A stretch of 18,574 nt of DNA from a virus. Lineage: Duplodnaviria; Heunggongvirae; Uroviricota; Caudoviricetes. Made by a program: the position numbers and the translations under genes. Positions 2,121-14,598 of this stretch are shown here, piece by piece. The stretch is taken from positions 1-18,574 of IMG/VR virus record IMGVR_UViG_2802429219_000011. One strand, given 5' to 3'. The notes below the pieces were generated by a model. It saw only the letters and a list, made by a program, of their open reading frames with translations. It had not been told where the DNA came from and searched no databases. Every line of letters begins with the position of its first letter. The first letter of the stretch is position 1.

Positions 2121-2196
<76 letters not shown>

Positions 2197-6373: not shown

Positions 6374-6529
6374 TTACTCCTCAGGTTCGTAAGCTGTGAA
6401 GACAGCGACCTCCGTCTGGCCGGTTCGGATTCGTACCTCGCAGAGGTCTTTCCTCGTTACCAGTGCCGTCACTATGACGGTTAAACAGATGACGATCAGG
6501 GCGATTAACATCGCCTTTTGCTGCTTCAT
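6374..6529 (-). CDS. hokD: Hok-family type I toxin (HokD/RelF-like)
   Basis: ATG at 6529-6527. Product MKQQKAMLIALIVICLTVIVTALVTRKDLCEVRIRTGQTEVAVFTAYEPEE: single TM helix plus the conserved Hok C-terminus (CE-R ... EVA-F-AYE). Matches my recollection of HokD. Confidence 0.85.
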   Translation of the reverse strand: MKQQKAMLIALIVICLTVIVTALVTRKDLCEVRIRTGQTEVAVFTAYEPEE

Positions 6530-6739
6530 AGCCTGCTTCTCCTTGCCTTTCGGCACGTAAGAGGCTAACCTACGTGTGCAAGTCATAGATATGGCCTCAG
6601 ATTAATGTTAAGCGTCTTGCAGGACGCGTAATGTTAACTGGGGCTTTTCTCTATCTGCCGTTGGTGTTCATGCCTGAGACAGATAGCCTCAAGCACCCGC
6701 AGCCATTCTACTTAACTATCCTTTTCCCGCAAATCGTTT

Positions 6740-9601: not shown

Positions 9602-10430
9602 GGTTTACCCCCTTGCTGACTGGTTTAACCTGCGCCCTGACGTGATTTACGTGACGGGCGAATTTCTGCTCCCACTGAATCTGCGTAAATACTTTCCCCT
9701 CCGCTGCCCAGTAGTCCCGGAAGGCGGCAAGTTCAGCAGGTGTAAATTCTGTCTCCGGCAAAGCCATCCCCCACAACGCAGCCCGTCGTCGAAAATCCCG
9801 TGACGGATACCAGCTATCGGTCATCGGAAATTTTCCGATGGGTTCGCTCAGGCCATCCAGGAATACAGGGGGTGCTGCCTGTAACGACAAAACTTCCTGC
9901 TCACTGGTCGGAGCACTCTCGCGTGCGTTATGTGTGGGGGTTAGATCTTTGGGTTCCTTTGGGTTCCGTGATCCGTTTTTGGGTGTCTTTGATGGAAAAT
10001 TTGGGTGTCTTTGGTTATTTTCCATGCAGTTAAGAGTTCCGTTTTTGGGTCTGTTTTGTGCTGAAACATAACCATTTTCGGTACTGTTTTTATTAACAGC
10101 ACCAATTTTACCCACCTTTAAAGACTCCCGTTTTTGGGTGTATTCAGGCTCGGCAACACTTTCTTCTACACCGATAAGTCGGTACACCACAATTTGCTTT
10201 GTTCTGCCTTTTCTCTCACCGGTATCAACAATTAACCCAATCTCCATCAGGTGTCGTAAGCTGTCCTGCACAGTCTTTTTGTTCAGTTCCGTTACTTCTG
10301 CCAGGGCAGATACAGACGGGTATGCACACAAATCGGCACCGCACATATCAGCAAGCCAGGTCAATACTGACTTACTGGATGAACTGCCGGTTTTCACCTT
10401 TTTAGCCCATCGTAGTGCATCGATACTCAT
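9390..10430 (-). CDS. Phage replication initiator (O-like): N-terminal winged-HTH domain and DnaT-like C-terminal region
   Basis: The ORF track starts at a TTG (10505); I prefer the ATG at 10430-10428 (MSIDALRWAKKV...) preceded by GGGG. The N-terminus matches the phage replication-protein HTH pattern (LTWLADMCGADL ... PSVSALAEVTELNKKTVQDSLRHL). Contains the iteron array. Confidence 0.65.
   Translation of the reverse strand: MSIDALRWAKKVKTGSSSSKSVLTWLADMCGADLCAYPSVSALAEVTELNKKTVQDSLRHLMEIGLIVDTGERKGRTKQIVVYRLIGVEESVAEPEYTQKRESLKVGKIGAVNKNSTENGYVSAQNRPKNGTLNCMENNQRHPNFPSKTPKNGSRNPKEPKDLTPTHNARESAPTSEQEVLSLQAAPPVFLDGLSEPIGKFPMTDSWYPSRDFRRRAALWGMALPETEFTPAELAAFRDYWAAEGKVFTQIQWEQKFARHVNHVRAQVKPVSKGVNHAATPGGTASRAVQEIRAAREQWERENGFIRDGNGVEVVGTHGGGLFEPLDPEERGRTFEALDCTDWRDD
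9948..10146. repeat. Iteron array (putative origin of replication) inside the O-like gene
   Basis: TTTGGGT core at 9948, 9958, 9978, 10000, 10044 and 10133. Longer copies CCGTTTTTGGGTGTCTTTG (9973-9991), AAATTTGGGTGTCTTTGG (9997-10014), TCCGTTTTTGGGTCTGTTTTG (10038-10058), CCCGTTTTTGGGTGTATTC (10128-10146). A moderately AT-rich stretch lies at 10061-10120. Confidence 0.6.
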
Positions 10431-10953
10431 ACGAACCCCAGACAGACATTTGTTTATCTGCAAAATAATGTTGGTATTGCTGACGATACGCATGCTTGAA
10501 AGCAATAGCTTTTTCTATAAGCTCGTCAGTCTCACGTTCCACAACAGCGGGATCCGCAAAAAGCAGCCCGGACTCCACCACATCGCCATATTCTTTGTTT
10601 AACCCGGCGATCATGTACGTAATGCTTTTTCCGTCAGTAATTTCACAATACAACCTGAAATCACTGATCCGGATAGCCTCCATAATTGCCGGAATCAACG
10701 CCGTGAATTTTTCACGCTTATCCCTGGTGTCAATAGCTTTCCAGCGTTCGAATATCTTCACTCTGTTAACGCCAAGCGCCCGTTGATCAACCGCGCCATC
10801 ATCAAATGTGACACGTTGAACATCGATGTTCGGGCGTTCTTTCAGAGTCCAGAATGCCTCTGTGATTAATATCGTCGCCTGCTCCTGCGTCATTCCTGGT
10901 CGACATACCCAGGCATCCAGAGCCTCGCGAGCCTGCTCAGGAGTGAATATCAT
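10402..10953 (-). CDS. Hypothetical early protein between cro-like and O-like genes (cII/YdaT position)
   Basis: ATG at 10953-10951 overlaps the last 17 nt of the cro-like gene. 183 aa, no motif recognised with confidence. Confidence 0.5.
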   Translation of the reverse strand: MIFTPEQAREALDAWVCRPGMTQEQATILITEAFWTLKERPNIDVQRVTFDDGAVDQRALGVNRVKIFERWKAIDTRDKREKFTALIPAIMEAIRISDFRLYCEITDGKSITYMIAGLNKEYGDVVESGLLFADPAVVERETDELIEKAIAFKHAYRQQYQHYFADKQMSVWGSYEYRCTTMG

Positions 10954-11209
10954 TGTTCACCGCCAGTGATTCATTCGACATACACTTATTTCCACAAGGT
11001 AGTCCATCTGTTGGGTTGGGATAAATGTCAGGGCGAATTTCATGCGGGGTAACTTCCCACTTCATTAACTGGCATAACGGAATTACCTGCTTTGGGGGAA
11101 CGCCAAAGCTAAACCATTGCCAAACGGTCTGTTGAGCGACCCCCATATAGCGACCTATTTCAGCTTGAGTGTATTTCTGCCTAATTTTTTCGCGAGTGCT
11201 ATCTAGCAT
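10937..11209 (-). CDS. Cro-like HTH regulator (YdaS-type)
   Basis: ATG at 11209-11207 with strong SD AGAGGAGGG. HTH segment TQAEIGRYMGVAQQTVWQW. Divergent from the repressor gene. Confidence 0.7.
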   Translation of the reverse strand: MLDSTREKIRQKYTQAEIGRYMGVAQQTVWQWFSFGVPPKQVIPLCQLMKWEVTPHEIRPDIYPNPTDGLPCGNKCMSNESLAVNNDIHS

Positions 11210-11244
11210 TTTGCCCTCCTCTGAAAACTATAAACAAAGCCTAC

Positions 11245-11279
11245 AATAAAAAACTGTACGCAATCAACAGTTTTTTATT
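11245..11279. promoter_or_regulatory. Operator: perfect 13-bp inverted repeat with 9-bp spacer in the divergent cro/repressor control region
   Basis: AATAAAAAACTGT (11245-11257), spacer ACGCAATCA, ACAGTTTTTTATT (11267-11279). Confidence 0.6.
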
Positions 11280-11317
11280 GTGATGCTTTTAACAGTATTT
11301 ACCTGTAAAATTGAATA

Positions 11318-11719
11318 ATGATGAACGCCCTAGAAGTATCTATGTACAGAATCAGCAAGCTTCTTCAGGAAACTGGATGGAGCCAGGCTGAACTTGCCCG
11401 TAGAATTGGTGTGACACAACAAACAGTTCAACAATGGGTCAGCGGTAAGGCTACGCCTAAAGCCTCAAGTTTGGATAAACTGGTTGAGGTTACAGGGCAT
11501 CCATTGCATTGGTTTTTATTGCCTCCTGATGAGGGGGAGCAAATTTTCACCCCTGACACAATGAAAATTGGTCCTCGCCAACGCGAACTGCTCCAAGCTT
11601 TTAGTGCGTTTCCAGAGGAAGACCAAGAAAAAATGCTTCAAGAAATCAAAGACAAGAAAAAATCAATGGAAGAAACTATTGCCCGATGGTTGGCGGCACA
11701 AAAAAGCCGCCGGGCGTGA
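11318..11719 (+). CDS. Prophage repressor, XRE-family HTH (DicA/PaaR2-like)
   Basis: HTH segment SQAELARRIGVTQQTVQQWVSG. C-terminal region (SAFPEEDQEKMLQEIKDK) parallels DicA (NALPESEQDTQLAEMRAR) as I recall it. Divergent from cro-like and directly upstream of the antitoxin/toxin pair. Confidence 0.7.
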   Translation: MMNALEVSMYRISKLLQETGWSQAELARRIGVTQQTVQQWVSGKATPKASSLDKLVEVTGHPLHWFLLPPDEGEQIFTPDTMKIGPRQRELLQAFSAFPEEDQEKMLQEIKDKKKSMEETIARWLAAQKSRRA

Positions 11720-11746
11720 CCACTGTACAAGAAGAGGAGTTATGCC

Positions 11747-11938
11747 ATGAGTACAGCCCTTTCTCCGATAGTTTCAGAATTCGAAACTACCGAACAAGAA
11801 AACAGTTACAACGAATGGTTGCGCGCTAAAGTGACGTTAAGCCTTGCAGACCCTCGCCCCGCAATTCCACATGACGAGGTAATGGCTGAAATGGAAAATC
11901 TTATTGCTCAAATTGCTGCAACTAACAGGAGCGAGTAA
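11747..11938 (+). CDS. Small antitoxin (PaaA2-like, 63 aa)
   Basis: Stop overlaps the ParE start (TAATG). Size, position between a DicA-like regulator and ParE, and acidic composition fit the paaR2-paaA2-parE2 arrangement reported in E. coli O157 prophages. Confidence 0.55.
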   Translation: MSTALSPIVSEFETTEQENSYNEWLRAKVTLSLADPRPAIPHDEVMAEMENLIAQIAATNRSE

Positions 11939-12225
11939 TGTTACCCATTTTATGGCTACCATCTGCTCGCGATGATTTGCGTCAGGTCGTAACCTATATT
12001 GCTAAGGAAAACATTCCTGCAGCACGCAGACTAAAAATACGTATTGAAACGTCTGTTTTAACCCTCTCTGAGCACCCATATCTATATCCGCTAAGTGATC
12101 GAGTATCCGGTTTGCGGGAACTTGTGGTTCACCCTAATTATATCGTGTTGTACCGAGTAGCAACTTCAAGCATTGAAATTGCGAATATTGTGCATGCCCG
12201 TCGACAATTTCCCTTCTCTATCTGA
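11938..12225 (+). CDS. parE: ParE/RelE-superfamily toxin
   Basis: Product MLPILWLPSARDDLRQVVTYIAKEN ... LSEHPYLYP ... GLRELVVHPNYIVLYRVATSSIEIANIVHARRQFP fits the ParE pattern (W-P-A-DL---YI ... G-REL-V--NY---YR ... I-I--I-H-R). Confidence 0.8.
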   Translation: MLPILWLPSARDDLRQVVTYIAKENIPAARRLKIRIETSVLTLSEHPYLYPLSDRVSGLRELVVHPNYIVLYRVATSSIEIANIVHARRQFPFSI

Positions 12226-12241
12226 GCCGAACAATTTCCAT

Positions 12242-12266
12242 ACTCCCTCATTCGAGGGAGTTTTTT
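12242..12266 (+). terminator. Intrinsic terminator after parE
   Basis: ACTCCCTC(12242-12249)-ATTC-GAGGGAGT(12254-12261) hairpin followed by T6 (12261-12266). Confidence 0.55.
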
Positions 12267-12278
12267 GTCTAAGACAAC

Positions 12279-12320
12279 AATTAAAAACTGTTGACACAAA
12301 ACAGTTTTTAATTGTAGATT
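12279..12320 (+). promoter_or_regulatory. Second operator copy overlapping a strong candidate promoter for the dicB-type operon
   Basis: AATTAAAAACTGT (12279-12291), 9-bp spacer, ACAGTTTTTAATT (12301-12313). Consensus -35 TTGACA (12291-12296) sits inside the operator, with TAGATT -10 at 12315-12320 (18-bp spacer). Confidence 0.55.
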
Positions 12321-12496
12321 ATTTTTACCAACCCACCCCGCCCCACAGAATGCAGGGCAATACTTCGAGTTACCAGGCAGTGGTCAGGGGTTAAGTAGCC
12401 AGCCCGAGGCGTAAGAACATGACGGCAGGGTTCAACTTTAACTATGCAGCAGGTTTTTGTTCCGCTACCCCGGCGTTAAGGGGAAATGAGGTCAAC

Positions 12497-12652
12497 ATGG
12501 ATACTATCGATCTTGGCAACAACGAATCTCTGGTGTACGGCGTGTTTCCCAACCAGGACGGCACGTTCACCGCGATGACGTATACCAAAAGCAAAATGTT
12601 TAAAACCGAAAATGGTGCCCGTCGCTGGCTGGAAAGAAACTCAGGTGAGTGA
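12497..12652 (+). CDS. ydfA: YdfA-like small protein (51 aa)
   Basis: ATG at 12497 with GAGG 5 nt upstream. Product MDTIDLGNNESLVYGVFPNQDGTFTAMTYTKSK... matches my recollection of Qin YdfA. The ORF-track start (12419) is an upstream in-frame extension. Confidence 0.65.
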   Translation: MDTIDLGNNESLVYGVFPNQDGTFTAMTYTKSKMFKTENGARRWLERNSGE

Positions 12653-13432: not shown

Positions 13433-13642
13433 TTACAGGGCGGTGCCAGCAGGGCCACGACGACCAACACCACGATTGTAATCAATGATGCCATTATAAA
13501 GCACATTGTTTAATTTATCGTCAAATGCTGATTTCGTGAGCCTTAACTCTGAATGGTTTTTTAATAACCCTGATTGCCTGAGTTGATTAACCAGACATTC
13601 AATCTGTTTTTCAATAAGCGGATGTATTGGTCTGTTTGGCAT
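13433..13642 (-). CDS. Hypothetical 69-aa protein, convergent with the 212-aa gene
   Basis: ATG at 13642-13640 with GGAGG 5-6 nt upstream (the ORF-track start at 13654 lies inside the SD). Product MPNRPIHPLIEKQIECLVNQLRQSGLLKNHSELRL...; no family recognised. Confidence 0.45.
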   Translation of the reverse strand: MPNRPIHPLIEKQIECLVNQLRQSGLLKNHSELRLTKSAFDDKLNNVLYNGIIDYNRGVGRRGPAGTAL

Positions 13643-13964
13643 TTTATCCTCCATTGAGGTTCTGGGTTAAAAATGGAGACCAACACGCTGCCACGTGTAG
13701 TCGTGCGCCGGACACGGATAAGAATCCGGCACTGACAGTTTACTGAAAGGATATATCCCTGAAAAGTCAGGGCATAACGCGAAAGCGCACGGCGAAGTTC
13801 TTCTGTCTGTACGGTGTCGTTAAATTTAATTCGACCGTGCGCTTCCGGTTGTGGCAATCCGCGAAATGGCGCGGCGGTAAGTATGGCGGGGTTATCCTTA
13901 CCCCATTAGTGGCACCGGGTTGTCAGGTTGACCATACGCCTGAGTGACAACCCCGCCACAACAA

Positions 13965-14026
13965 CCCATGTTGATTACCTTTTGGCGGGTATCCGTTTTG
14001 TTTTCCCCGTGATACCCGCCCTTTTT
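13965..14026 (+). ncRNA. DicF-like small RNA (divergent homolog), 3' end defined by an intrinsic terminator
   Basis: Perfect 10-bp stem GGCGGGTATC (13984-13993)/GATACCCGCC (14011-14020) with T5 at 14022-14026, in the conserved ydfABC-dicF-dicB operon position. TTTGGCGG-TATC ... CCGTGA ... CCGCCCTTTTT resembles my recollection of DicF. The 5' end is a guess. Confidence 0.4.
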
Positions 14027-14209
14027 AAAGTGAATTTTGTGATGCGGTGAATGCGGCTCAGCGCACGCGGAACAGTTAAAAAGGCCAGTTGACTTCCGTA
14101 TTGGTTCTTATGGGTGGGTTCTCTGTATCCGGCGTTAATTATTAACTGGTTAACGTCACCTGGAGGCACCAGGCACCGCATCACAAAATTCATTGTTGAG
14201 GACGCGATA

Positions 14210-14392
14210 ATGGAAACGTTATTACCAAACGTCAATACGTCTGAAGGTTGTTTTGAAATTGGTGTCAGAATCAGTAACCCTGTATTTACTGAAGATGCCA
14301 TTAATAAGAGAAAACACGAACGGGAGCTATTAAATCAAATATGCATTGTTTCAATGCTGGCCCGTTTACGCCTGATGCAAAAAGGACGCTGA
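14210..14392 (+). CDS. dicB: DicB cell-division inhibitor
   Basis: ATG at 14210 with GAGGA 8 nt upstream. Product METLLPNVNTSEGCFEIGVRISNPVFTEDAINKRKHERELLNQICIVSMLARLRLMQKGR, 60 aa, nearly identical to my recollection of DicB. Confidence 0.85.
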   Translation: METLLPNVNTSEGCFEIGVRISNPVFTEDAINKRKHERELLNQICIVSMLARLRLMQKGR

Positions 14393-14394
14393 CA

Positions 14395-14598
14395 ATGAAT
14401 ACAGCATTTGCACTCGTTCTGACAGTTTTTCTTAATACAGGCGAACCAGTCGATCTTGTTATTGGTATACATGACTCAATGAAAGAATGCATGGCTGCCG
14501 CAGCGGAACAGAAAATTCCCGGCAACTGTTATCCGGTTGATAAAGTTATTCGCATGGACAATAACGAAATCCCGGCAGGACTTAAAGCAGCACCGTAA
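14395..14598 (+). CDS. ydfD: YdfD-like small protein (N-terminal hydrophobic segment; lysis-associated in Qin)
   Basis: ATG at 14395 directly after the dicB stop, AAGGA upstream. Product MNTAFALVLTVFLNTGEPVDL ... KIPGNCYPVDKVI, consistent with Qin YdfD as I recall it. Confidence 0.65.
   Translation: MNTAFALVLTVFLNTGEPVDLVIGIHDSMKECMAAAAEQKIPGNCYPVDKVIRMDNNEIPAGLKAAP

Follow-up and report, generated by a model that had tools for sequence, protein, structure and literature searches.

Two inverted repeats in a prophage of the Sakai Sp4 immunity type are very probably the OR and OL operator sets of its repressor

Results

Two inverted repeats in the 18,574-nucleotide stretch of DNA analysed here (the window) very probably serve as OR and OL operators in a prophage that is lambdoid, resembles Qin and Rac and has the immunity type of Sakai Sp4; its 133-aa repressor would bind five 15-bp sites. 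By analogy with known prophages the arrangement appears ordinary and well understood, with a single repressor in control of the immunity switch as well as of the dicB operon promoter; binding by the repressor and repression of that promoter, here named PL, have been seen in the homologous systems only, those of DicA and PaaR2. The immunity region carries genes for YdaT, YdaS, an HTH_3 repressor, PaaA, ParE and a DUF1391 protein by Pfam, together with dicB, and is annotated alike in E. coli relatives and in Sakai Sp4, which we take to be the equivalent of CP-933M. A switch of this type was present in 509 of 5426 complete E. coli genomes.

The palindromes were found exactly where the earlier note had placed them, with AATAAAAAACTGT-N9-ACAGTTTTTTATT at 11245-11279 and AATTAAAAACTGT-N9-ACAGTTTTTAATT at 12279-12313. 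That note had taken them for the same 13-bp repeat occurring twice; they do share the N9 architecture, but their 13-nt arms differ at one position each (A vs T), so the two are not identical. In its full extent, palindrome 1 covers 11243-11281, with perfect 15-nt arms (11243-11257 and 11267-11281) and a 9-nt gap, and lies between the YdaS/Cro-like gene and the gene for the 133-aa HTH repressor. Palindrome 2 covers 12277-12315, with perfect 16-nt arms (12277-12292 and 12300-12315) and a 7-nt gap; it lies past paaA-parE and a terminator and wraps the PL promoter, with dicB further downstream. The repeats are non-random and cannot be put down to chance: the window has 5 copies of the half-site AAAAACTGT where 0.28 would be expected, a count reached in 0 of 200 shuffles, and 2 copies of the full N9 palindrome where the expectation is 0.02. 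When the pattern ACART-N5-AYTGT was searched with up to 1 mismatch, only five matches were found in 18.6 kb, all of them within the two regulatory gaps.

The switch consists of a cro-like gene and a repressor gene that diverge across a 108-bp gap (10937-11209 on the minus strand and 11318-11719 on the plus strand), where three ACART-N5-AYTGT sites at 11243-11306 overlap the hexamers of two putative promoters, PR and PRM. On the minus strand, PR (11238-11267) would combine a -35 hexamer TTGATT (11267->11262), an 18-nt spacer and a -10 hexamer TAGGCT (11243->11238), which is a weak match to consensus. Its layout is that of PL, and the PR and PL cassettes pair as inverted copies that are 76% complementary over 51 nt. 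Repeat and pattern searches placed OR1, the left arm of palindrome 1 (ACAATAAAAAACTGT, 11243-11257), in the PR spacer, and OR2, the right arm (ACAGTTTTTTATTGT, 11267-11281), next to the PR -35 hexamer, with its centre about 44 bp upstream of the repressor ATG. The sole match besides the palindrome arms is the OR3 candidate ACAGTATTTACCTGT (11292-11306), which overlaps the putative PRM (11306-11318, plus strand). As read from the sequence, PRM would have its -10 hexamer TAAAAT at 11306-11311 and its +1 at the A of the repressor ATG (11318). The repressor gene has no Shine-Dalgarno sequence, and its mRNA would be leaderless if PRM is placed correctly.

The repressor (11318-11719, plus strand, 133 aa) has an N-terminal HTH_3 domain (Pfam, E=2e-13) and is 97% identical to ECs_1069 of Sakai Sp4. 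It is short, a LexA-type cleavage domain being absent by sequence reading, and among solved structures the 434 repressor is the nearest to its HTH. The cro-like protein (90 aa; Pfam YdaS_toxin, E=7.8e-10) is 42% identical to the repressor in the HTH, and the helix-3 stretches of the two are nearly the same (AQQTVWQW vs TQQTVQQW). Since its recognition helix is almost that of the repressor, YdaS most likely competes for the same sites. The earlier note had a single repressor both setting immunity and silencing the division-inhibitor operon, a reading that gains support from the gene context, from covariation among relatives and from the Qin and CP-933P homologues, except that the Cro-like YdaS very likely uses the sites as well. 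The second gene of the leftward operon is ydaT-like (10402-10953, minus strand, 183 aa; Pfam YdaT_toxin, E=1e-5) and would be a functional analogue of lambda CII. In the 434 repressor, QQ at the start of recognition helix 3 reads ACA, and we considered QQ as a predictor of the ACA ends; this was demoted to a lead, as the 66% identical repressor of one relative (L082) keeps QQ while its operators differ.

Downstream of the repressor gene lies a paaA-parE toxin-antitoxin pair (11747-11938 and 11938-12225, plus strand), a PaaA-type antitoxin followed by a ParE toxin according to Pfam (PaaA2, E=2.6e-21; ParE_toxin, E=1.4e-14) and PDB matches (ParE2 of 5cw7, E=1.5e-36, 60 of 93 residues identical). 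The presence of this module, and of YdaS, raises the alternative that the palindromes are bound mainly by another protein, either YdaS alone, with its nearly identical recognition helix, or a PaaA-ParE complex acting as a classical autoregulator, as antitoxins of type II systems do at their own operons. We regard this as improbable. To our knowledge, from structural work on PaaA2, PaaA-type antitoxins have no DNA-binding domain, and variant prophages with a 351-bp deletion have lost most of paaA-parE while the repressor and both palindromes stay intact. The YdaS of CP-933P does repress its PL933P promoter, but PaaR2 and YdaS both act at such sites there (PMC8630535), and we retain the repressor as the probable main ligand. 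The repressor-TA operon ends in an intrinsic terminator at 12242-12267 (plus strand), which has an 8-bp G+C-rich stem followed by a T run and folds at -13.7 kcal/mol (z=-4.6).

Beyond the repressor gene, and reading away from it, a second promoter is bracketed by the two remaining sites (12277-12315). The promoter scan gave PL at 12291-12320 on the plus strand as TTGACA-N18-TAGATT (10/12 matches), with the TTGACA that the earlier note had reported at the second palindrome located at 12291-12296; the -35 hexamer is consensus and the -10 hexamer matches at 4 of 6 positions. PL lies 177 nt upstream of ydfA, and its -35 hexamer starts 206 nt before the start codon of that gene. By repeat and pattern searches, OL2, the left arm of palindrome 2 (ACAATTAAAAACTGT, 12277-12291), abuts the -35 hexamer, and OL1, the right arm (ACAGTTTTTAATTGT, 12301-12315), fills the spacer. 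A third OL site, the palindrome TTGTCTAAGACAA at 12265-12277, was rejected, being unconserved in relatives.

Palindrome 2 could also be an RNA hairpin that serves as a back-up terminator for read-through from parE and is no protein site at all. A terminator scan did flag 12277-12315, with a 16-bp stem followed by a T-rich tail, and this segment folds at -17.6 kcal/mol (z=-6.4). Its stem, however, is nearly all A-T, the proper G+C-rich terminator described above stands immediately upstream, and palindrome 1, being upstream of both putative start sites of the switch, would stay untranscribed. Together with the occurrence of each immunity type's own repeats at both places (below), which a hairpin leaves unexplained, these points make this possibility very improbable, and palindrome 2 is treated as the OL set in what follows.

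From PL, a conserved 5′ leader of about 175 nt (12321-12496, plus strand) extends to ydfA, and nearly the same leader sequence follows at least 12 promoter-operator types. The leader was considered as a structured RNA and this was rejected, since 12326-12500 is no more stable than shuffled sequences (z=+1.67); it had no Rfam match. The first gene of the operon is ydfA (12497-12652, plus strand; Pfam DUF1391, E=4.7e-27), and dicB (14210-14392) and ydfD (14395-14598) follow downstream on the same strand, with reading frames checked, in a dicBF operon layout that aligns with that of K-12. DicB is identical to K-12 DicB at 54 of 59 residues (92%). For DicF, the small RNA that lies between ydfC and dicB in the Qin-type operon, no Rfam match was obtained at the gathering score or at E ≤ 1, and alignment with K-12 revealed a 9-nt deletion and a diverged DicF 5′ part in the DicF-like region. 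The distance from PL to dicB is 1.9 kb and crosses an opposite-strand ORF and the DicF-like terminator; by analogy with Qin, transcription from PL may continue to dicB, which is uncertain.

In order to follow the sites through natural variation, we used a conservation set of 38 loci, comprising 37 IMG/VR loci and the window. The flanks of the arms vary while the arms are essentially invariant: those of OR1 and OR2 showed zero variation in the 38 loci, with 11 variants of the 9-nt spacer between them, and the OR3 candidate varied only at its central base. OL2 was kept in 37 of the 37 IMG/VR loci, and the OL arms had two rare variants in all, a change of the OL1 arm end from AATTGT to ACTTGT (1 of 37) and an inner T for A in OL1, from TAATTGT to TTATTGT (5 of 37). 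In 7 of 37 loci, including Sakai Sp4, the OL spacer has one additional base, giving a 25-bp spacing.

These data bear on how the palindromes are to be parsed. The earlier note had read the arms as half-sites; as judged from their sequence, each arm is instead probably a separate 15-bp operator of the form ACART-N5-AYTGT, with three such operators at the switch and two at PL. The competing parse, in which each 39-bp palindrome is one operator and the 13-16-nt arms are half-sites of a single symmetric repressor oligomer, seems to us rather unlikely, though it has points in its favour, namely that the arms are perfect mirror images including an asymmetric A-tract and that the whole arm is conserved. 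Against it, the distance of 24 bp between the arm centres is more than a compact dimer, as known from the 434, lambda and P22 repressors, could span with its two HTH domains, and the natural OL variants with 25-bp spacing are also difficult for it. Each arm has an internal dyad of its own, and the third conserved site at 11292-11306 has ACA...TGT ends with no A-tract half-site. PaaR2, moreover, forms multiple complexes and gives a 78-bp footprint (PMC8630535). Under the one-operator parse the function would be unchanged and only the anatomy would differ; a 39-bp palindrome can also be read as one composite site.

Further evidence for the operator reading comes from comparison between immunity types. 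Upstream of the conserved ydfA leader we found about 19 distinct promoter types, corresponding to immunity types, and in each of these heteroimmune types the repeats at the ydfA promoter match the switch of their own prophage. The own-versus-other 8-mer score was 129 vs 70.2 ± 8.8 (p ≤ 5e-6, permutation test, about 19 types), where the score is the best k-mer score of a 110-bp window. Switch regions were set by hand for this comparison, because longest-ORF calling missed the switch at about half of the loci. Two other measures were discarded: 9-mer sharing between the PL region and the 3 kb upstream was too noisy (diagonal 12.0 vs off-diagonal 8.1), and blastn-short of PL against the upstream region was powerless for such short sites.

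Discussion

In the model proposed here, where the positions of the transcription starts, the division into five sites and the control of the repressor by itself are inferred, the 133-aa repressor would bind OR1 (11243-57), OR2 (11267-81), OR3 (11292-306), OL2 (12277-91) and OL1 (12301-15). At PR and at PL, a pair of inverted sites would flank the -35 hexamer and occupy the spacer, and bound repressor would thereby exclude RNA polymerase, shutting off ydaS/ydaT leftward and the ydfA ... dicF-like-dicB-ydfD-exo-xis-int transcription unit rightward. From OR2, the repressor may activate synthesis of its own leaderless mRNA, and OR3, lying over the putative -10 hexamer, would then give negative autoregulation, both as in lambda, while YdaS competing for the same sites could make the switch bistable. 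A further idea, which we put forward tentatively and think somewhat doubtful, is that an oligomeric repressor, octameric like PaaR2, bridges the five-site set in a 1.03-kb OR-OL loop around the repressor gene and paaA-parE, with the N9/N10 polymorphism at OL tuning repression of the dicB operon.

In lambda and 434, CI and Cro share OR1-3 between divergent PR and PRM, and a second set, OL1-3, lies beyond the repressor gene. The window has the same plan, with three sites between divergent promoters, spaced 24-25 bp centre to centre as in the lambda geometry known to us, a second site set over a leftward-type promoter beyond the repressor gene, a repressor mRNA that would likewise be leaderless, and a repressor and Cro predicted to use common sites. 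Unlike these phages, it has only two evident OL sites and a short repressor that by sequence reading has no LexA-type cleavage domain, and no N-type antiterminator gene follows PL. Because that domain is absent, the prophage would presumably be induced through an antirepressor or through noise in the switch, like Qin (PMC10448788).

For Qin itself, DicA has been reported to bind Oc and to repress dicBp, and deletion of dicA raises dicBp activity 22-fold (PMC3441716, PMC10448788). The two prophages share a short repressor (about 135 aa) adjoining a divergent cro-like gene, a homologous downstream operon with the closely similar DicB, and the use of one palindrome type that appears in the switch as Oc (TTGTTAGTCATAACTAACAA) and again on either side of the -35 hexamer of the ydfABC-dicF-dicB promoter; in K-12 Qin the sites at the two equivalent places are of a TGTTAGYCAT type, unrelated to those of the window. 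DicC is also unrelated to the cro-like protein found here, the DicF region has diverged, the leader is long where that of Qin is short, and a paaA-parE module with its terminator separates the repressor gene from PL. The comparison with DicA made in the earlier note thus holds for the logic, which is that of Qin, and fails for descent: with no more than 28% identity to DicA, and 53.4 bits against the NCBIfam DicA model NF007257, whose cut-off is 101, the repressor is no orthologue of DicA, although it would work in a DicA-like way.

A closer relative is CP-933P, a cryptic prophage of E. coli O157:H7, where footprints of PaaR2 and YdaS were obtained on the switch and these proteins repress PL933P about 100-fold; paaR2 mRNA is leaderless there, and ydaT comes second in the leftward operon (Jurenas et al. 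2021, PMC8630535). The order of genes is the same (ydaT-ydaS, then the divergent repressor-paaA-parE, a terminator, PL and ydfA), the start of the -35 hexamer precedes the ydfA start codon by 207 nt at PL933P and by 206 nt at PL of the window, and operator repeats are common to the switch and PL. The repressor is 40% identical to the CP-933P-type repressor over residues 37-133, and ParE has the 60 of 93 identical residues given above. Two loci, L067 and L049, are of the CP-933P type, since their ParE is identical to PDB ParE2, and both have PL at the position seen in the window. The immunity specificity nevertheless differs. The N-terminal DNA-binding parts of the two repressors cannot be aligned, and YdaT in the window has 183 aa. 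In CP-933P the repeats belong to a GTTTAGT/TTAATAAAC type, for which four palindromes of 18 bp and a further three 'operators' have been described, whereas the five ACART-N5-AYTGT sites form two 39-bp perfect palindromes and one single site. The CP-933P YdaT operator TTGATT-N6-AATCAA is absent from the window even when up to 2 mismatches are allowed.

CP-933M carries a homologous system (PMC8630535), and we found nothing specific in the literature on CP-933M operators and paaR1, nor binding or expression data for the Sp4 immunity type in the searchable literature. About 9% of complete E. coli genomes harbour this type, O157:H7 Sakai Sp4 being one example; its neighbours Qin and CP-933P have been dissected, but this type apparently has not. 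The proposed map of five sites, three promoters and a leaderless repressor mRNA changes no concept, but it could help in predicting which of the many lambdoid prophages in EHEC strains are cross-immune, and when dicB-type division inhibitors and the recombination and excision genes become de-repressed. The looped five-site set, if true, would be a compact immunity specificity, not characterised before, that follows an operator grammar of its own.

Among the copies of AAAAACTGT recovered by the window-wide search that the earlier note had proposed, the fifth, at 14422-14430, is a single half-site within the ydfD coding sequence and probably occurs there by chance.

Gene context and palindromes

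The window belongs to a lambdoid, Qin/Rac-like E. coli prophage, and the annotation of the region in E. coli relatives agrees with it. To the left of palindrome 1 lie genes of the YdaS (HTH; 10937-11209, minus strand) and YdaT (10402-10953, minus strand) families and then a DnaT-domain replication gene. To its right lie the plus-strand genes of a 133-aa HTH_3 protein, the repressor (11318-11719), a PaaA2-type antitoxin (11747-11938) and a ParE toxin (11938-12225), with a G+C-rich terminator (12242-12267) 3′ of the last. Palindrome 2 follows around TTGACA-N18-TAGATT (10 of 12 matches in a promoter scan), then an approximately 175-nt leader and ydfA (DUF1391; 12497-12652). Beyond ydfA come a 212-aa ORF, an opposite-strand ORF, a region homologous to K-12 dicF, dicB (14210-14392; 54 of 59 residues shared with K-12 DicB), ydfD (14395-14598), an exonuclease-VIII-like gene, and ORFs placed like the annotated xis and int of relatives.

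Direct reading of the sequence confirmed the inverted repeat reported in the earlier note, AATAAAAAACTGT-N9-ACAGTTTTTTATT at the switch (11245-11279) and AATTAAAAACTGT-N9-ACAGTTTTTAATT at 12279-12313, as well as the TTGACA -35 element within the latter (12291-12296). A repeat finder extended the perfect arms to 15 nt (11243-11257/11267-11281) and 16 nt (12277-12292/12300-12315), and paired the two regions as inverted copies over 51 nt with 76% complementarity. When the proposed search for further half-site copies was run on the 18.6-kb window, AAAAACTGT was found five times against 0.28 expected, a number reached in 0 of 200 shuffles, and the full palindrome twice against 0.02 expected. A chance origin of both palindromes is excluded. 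The fifth half-site copy (14422-14430), isolated within the ydfD reading frame, is probably a chance occurrence.

Putative operator sites and promoters

Each palindrome arm is itself pseudo-palindromic, ACART-N5-AYTGT. With at most one mismatch, this pattern has five matches in the window, all within the two regulatory gaps: 11243-11257, 11267-11281 and 11292-11306 (ACAGTATTTACCTGT) at the switch, and 12277-12291 and 12301-12315 at PL. The inverted repeat is real at both places, and its arms appear better read as separate operators, five sites in all.

On the minus strand, the switch carries TTGATT-N18-TAGGCT upstream of GGAGG and the ydaS ATG, and shares its layout with PL: in each, one site lies directly against the -35 element and a second occupies the spacer. 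Read on the plus strand, TAAAAT (11306-11311) would serve as a -10 element, with its predicted start at the first base of the repressor ATG (11318). The third switch site extends into this hexamer, and the middle site has its centre about 44 bp upstream of the ATG. From these elements we infer PR, the ydaS promoter, and PRM, the repressor promoter. The site spacings (24 and 25 bp) and positions resemble lambda OR1-OR2-OR3 in the textbook account. Lambda cI mRNA is leaderless. No Shine-Dalgarno sequence precedes the repressor ATG, and the repressor mRNA is likewise predicted to be leaderless, as is paaR2 mRNA (PMC8630535).

Conservation within the immunity type

The repressor and ECs_1069 of the O157:H7 Sakai prophage Sp4, where gene order is the same, are 97% identical; we take Sp4 to be the Sakai equivalent of EDL933 CP-933M. 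CP-933M has been named as a carrier of a paaR2-paaA2-parE2 homologue (Jurenas et al., PMC8630535). Of 5426 complete E. coli genomes, 509 had a match to the 121-bp switch region, 500 of them at ≥95% identity. A pattern scan found both palindromes in 37 IMG/VR contigs, 1034-1037 bp apart, or 683 bp in two contigs. These 37 loci and the window, reduced to distinct sequences (17 switch, 23 PL), were aligned, and variation lay in spacers and flanks, with none in the arms. OR arms were identical in 37 of 37 loci and the 9-nt OR spacer had 11 variants; rare OL arm variants carried T for A at an inner position (5/37) or an end-position change (1/37). In the third switch site, only the central base varied among relatives.

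In 7 of the 37 loci, including Sakai Sp4, an extra A lengthens the OL spacer from 9 to 10 nt; five of these loci also have the OR-type ACAGTTTTTTATTGT as right arm. This naturally occurring polymorphism changes the spacing within the PL spacer region, and such a one-base change would be more easily tolerated by independent operators than by half-sites of one dimer. It is possible to read each palindrome as one long operator, but these variants, the 24-bp arm spacing and the third switch site all disfavour that parse.

In three loci (L077, L125 and L141), a 351-bp deletion (window 11813-12162) takes out most of paaA and parE, leaving the repressor and both palindromes intact with an OR-OL distance of 683 bp, so the arrangement does not depend on the toxin-antitoxin module. 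One 48-kb contig (2617270976_000012) returned its OR-type and OL-type palindromes as separate loci (L093 and L096), and these appear further apart than the usual 1.03 kb.

Covariation of switch and PL across immunity types

We clustered 80 YdfA-encoding IMG/VR loci on the DNA immediately preceding the conserved leader; the 21 clusters represent about 19 distinct promoter types, and 19 representatives were scored. Most types have a TTGAC-type -35 element that starts 101-106 or 206-212 nt before the ydfA start codon, and in every type examined the repeats flanking it reappear in the switch of the same prophage. Qin has TGTTAGTCAT at both places and the CP-933P type has GGTTTAGT / GTTTATTAAAC; further types have, among others, TTGAGTTTTCTCA, AATTACAAATTTAA and ATAGCCTATTGACAA. 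Loci L067 and L049 belong to the CP-933P type, since they encode a ParE identical to that of PDB 5cw7 (ParE2). Best-window 8-mer scores between each PL and its own upstream DNA summed to 129, compared with 70.2 ± 8.8 for permuted partners (p ≤ 5e-6). At the sequence level, such covariation is the computational equivalent of one regulator set reading both places. If palindrome 2 instead acted as an RNA hairpin or back-up terminator, both this covariation and the untranscribed copy at the switch would be left unexplained.

The arrangement matches the standard OR/OL plan of lambdoid phages, demonstrated before in the two sister prophages Qin and CP-933P. Qin DicA binds a 20-bp palindrome, Oc, and activates dicA (PMC3441716), dicA deletion raises dicBp 22-fold, and operator sequences have been described between dicA/dicC and between dicA/dicBp (PMC10448788). 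In CP-933P, PaaR2 and YdaS footprint the switch and each represses PL933P about 100-fold; this promoter, named after lambda PL, has switch-like operators and lies beyond the paaR2-paaA2-parE2 operon (PMC8630535), a position homologous to that of palindrome 2. The literature searched contained no description of operators of the Sp4/CP-933M type.

Candidate binding proteins

The repressor and the Cro-like YdaS are 42% identical over the HTH, with nearly alike helix-3 stretches (TQQTVQQW and AQQTVWQW), and, like their counterparts in lambda, 434 and CP-933P, probably bind a common set of sites. The closest solved structure to the repressor HTH is 434 repressor. The helix-3 QQ pair might specify the ACA ends, but this is no more than a lead, since the 66% identical repressor of locus L082 keeps QQ with different operators. 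With DicA, the repressor shares 28% identity, and it scores 53 bits against the 101-bit NCBIfam DicA cut-off, which marks it as a PaaR/DicA-like protein, not a DicA orthologue. The earlier proposal of one DicA-like repressor for both the switch and the dicB operon is supported, with three amendments: the protein is no DicA orthologue, the Cro-like protein very likely acts at these sites too, and the arms are better taken as separate operators.

Comparison of the window repressor with those of L014, L067 and L082 shows a modular build: across immunity types the C-terminal 50-100 residues are 40-65% identical and the N-terminal HTH part is replaced, which suggests that new immunity types arise by repressor domain swapping. 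The YdaT-like protein has 183 aa in the window and 141 aa in O157-type relatives; the window contains no copy of the CP-933P YdaT operator TTGATT-N6-AATCAA.

Other features

The opposite-strand ORF inside the PL transcription unit (73 aa; 13433-13654, minus strand) has no K-12 counterpart and is "hypothetical" in relatives. The dicF-homologous region (about 13960-14030) gave no Rfam DicF match; it has a 9-nt deletion and divergence at the part matching the DicF 5′ end, and retains a GGCGGG...CCCGCC stem followed by a T run. At 14033-14187, STnc100 matches below threshold (33.5 bits; gathering score 47). The leader (12321-12496) gave no Rfam match and no predicted structure overall (z=+1.67), and contains a CCCC-N8-GGGG hairpin right before the ydfA ribosome-binding site; it is near-identical after at least 12 unrelated promoter-operator types, and the leader of Qin-type loci differs from it and is short. 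The prophage right arm carries two tRNA genes (2046-2117 and 2124-2196, minus strand) and a sok antitoxin RNA (6524-6698, minus strand; 109.5 bits), which implies a hok/sok module.
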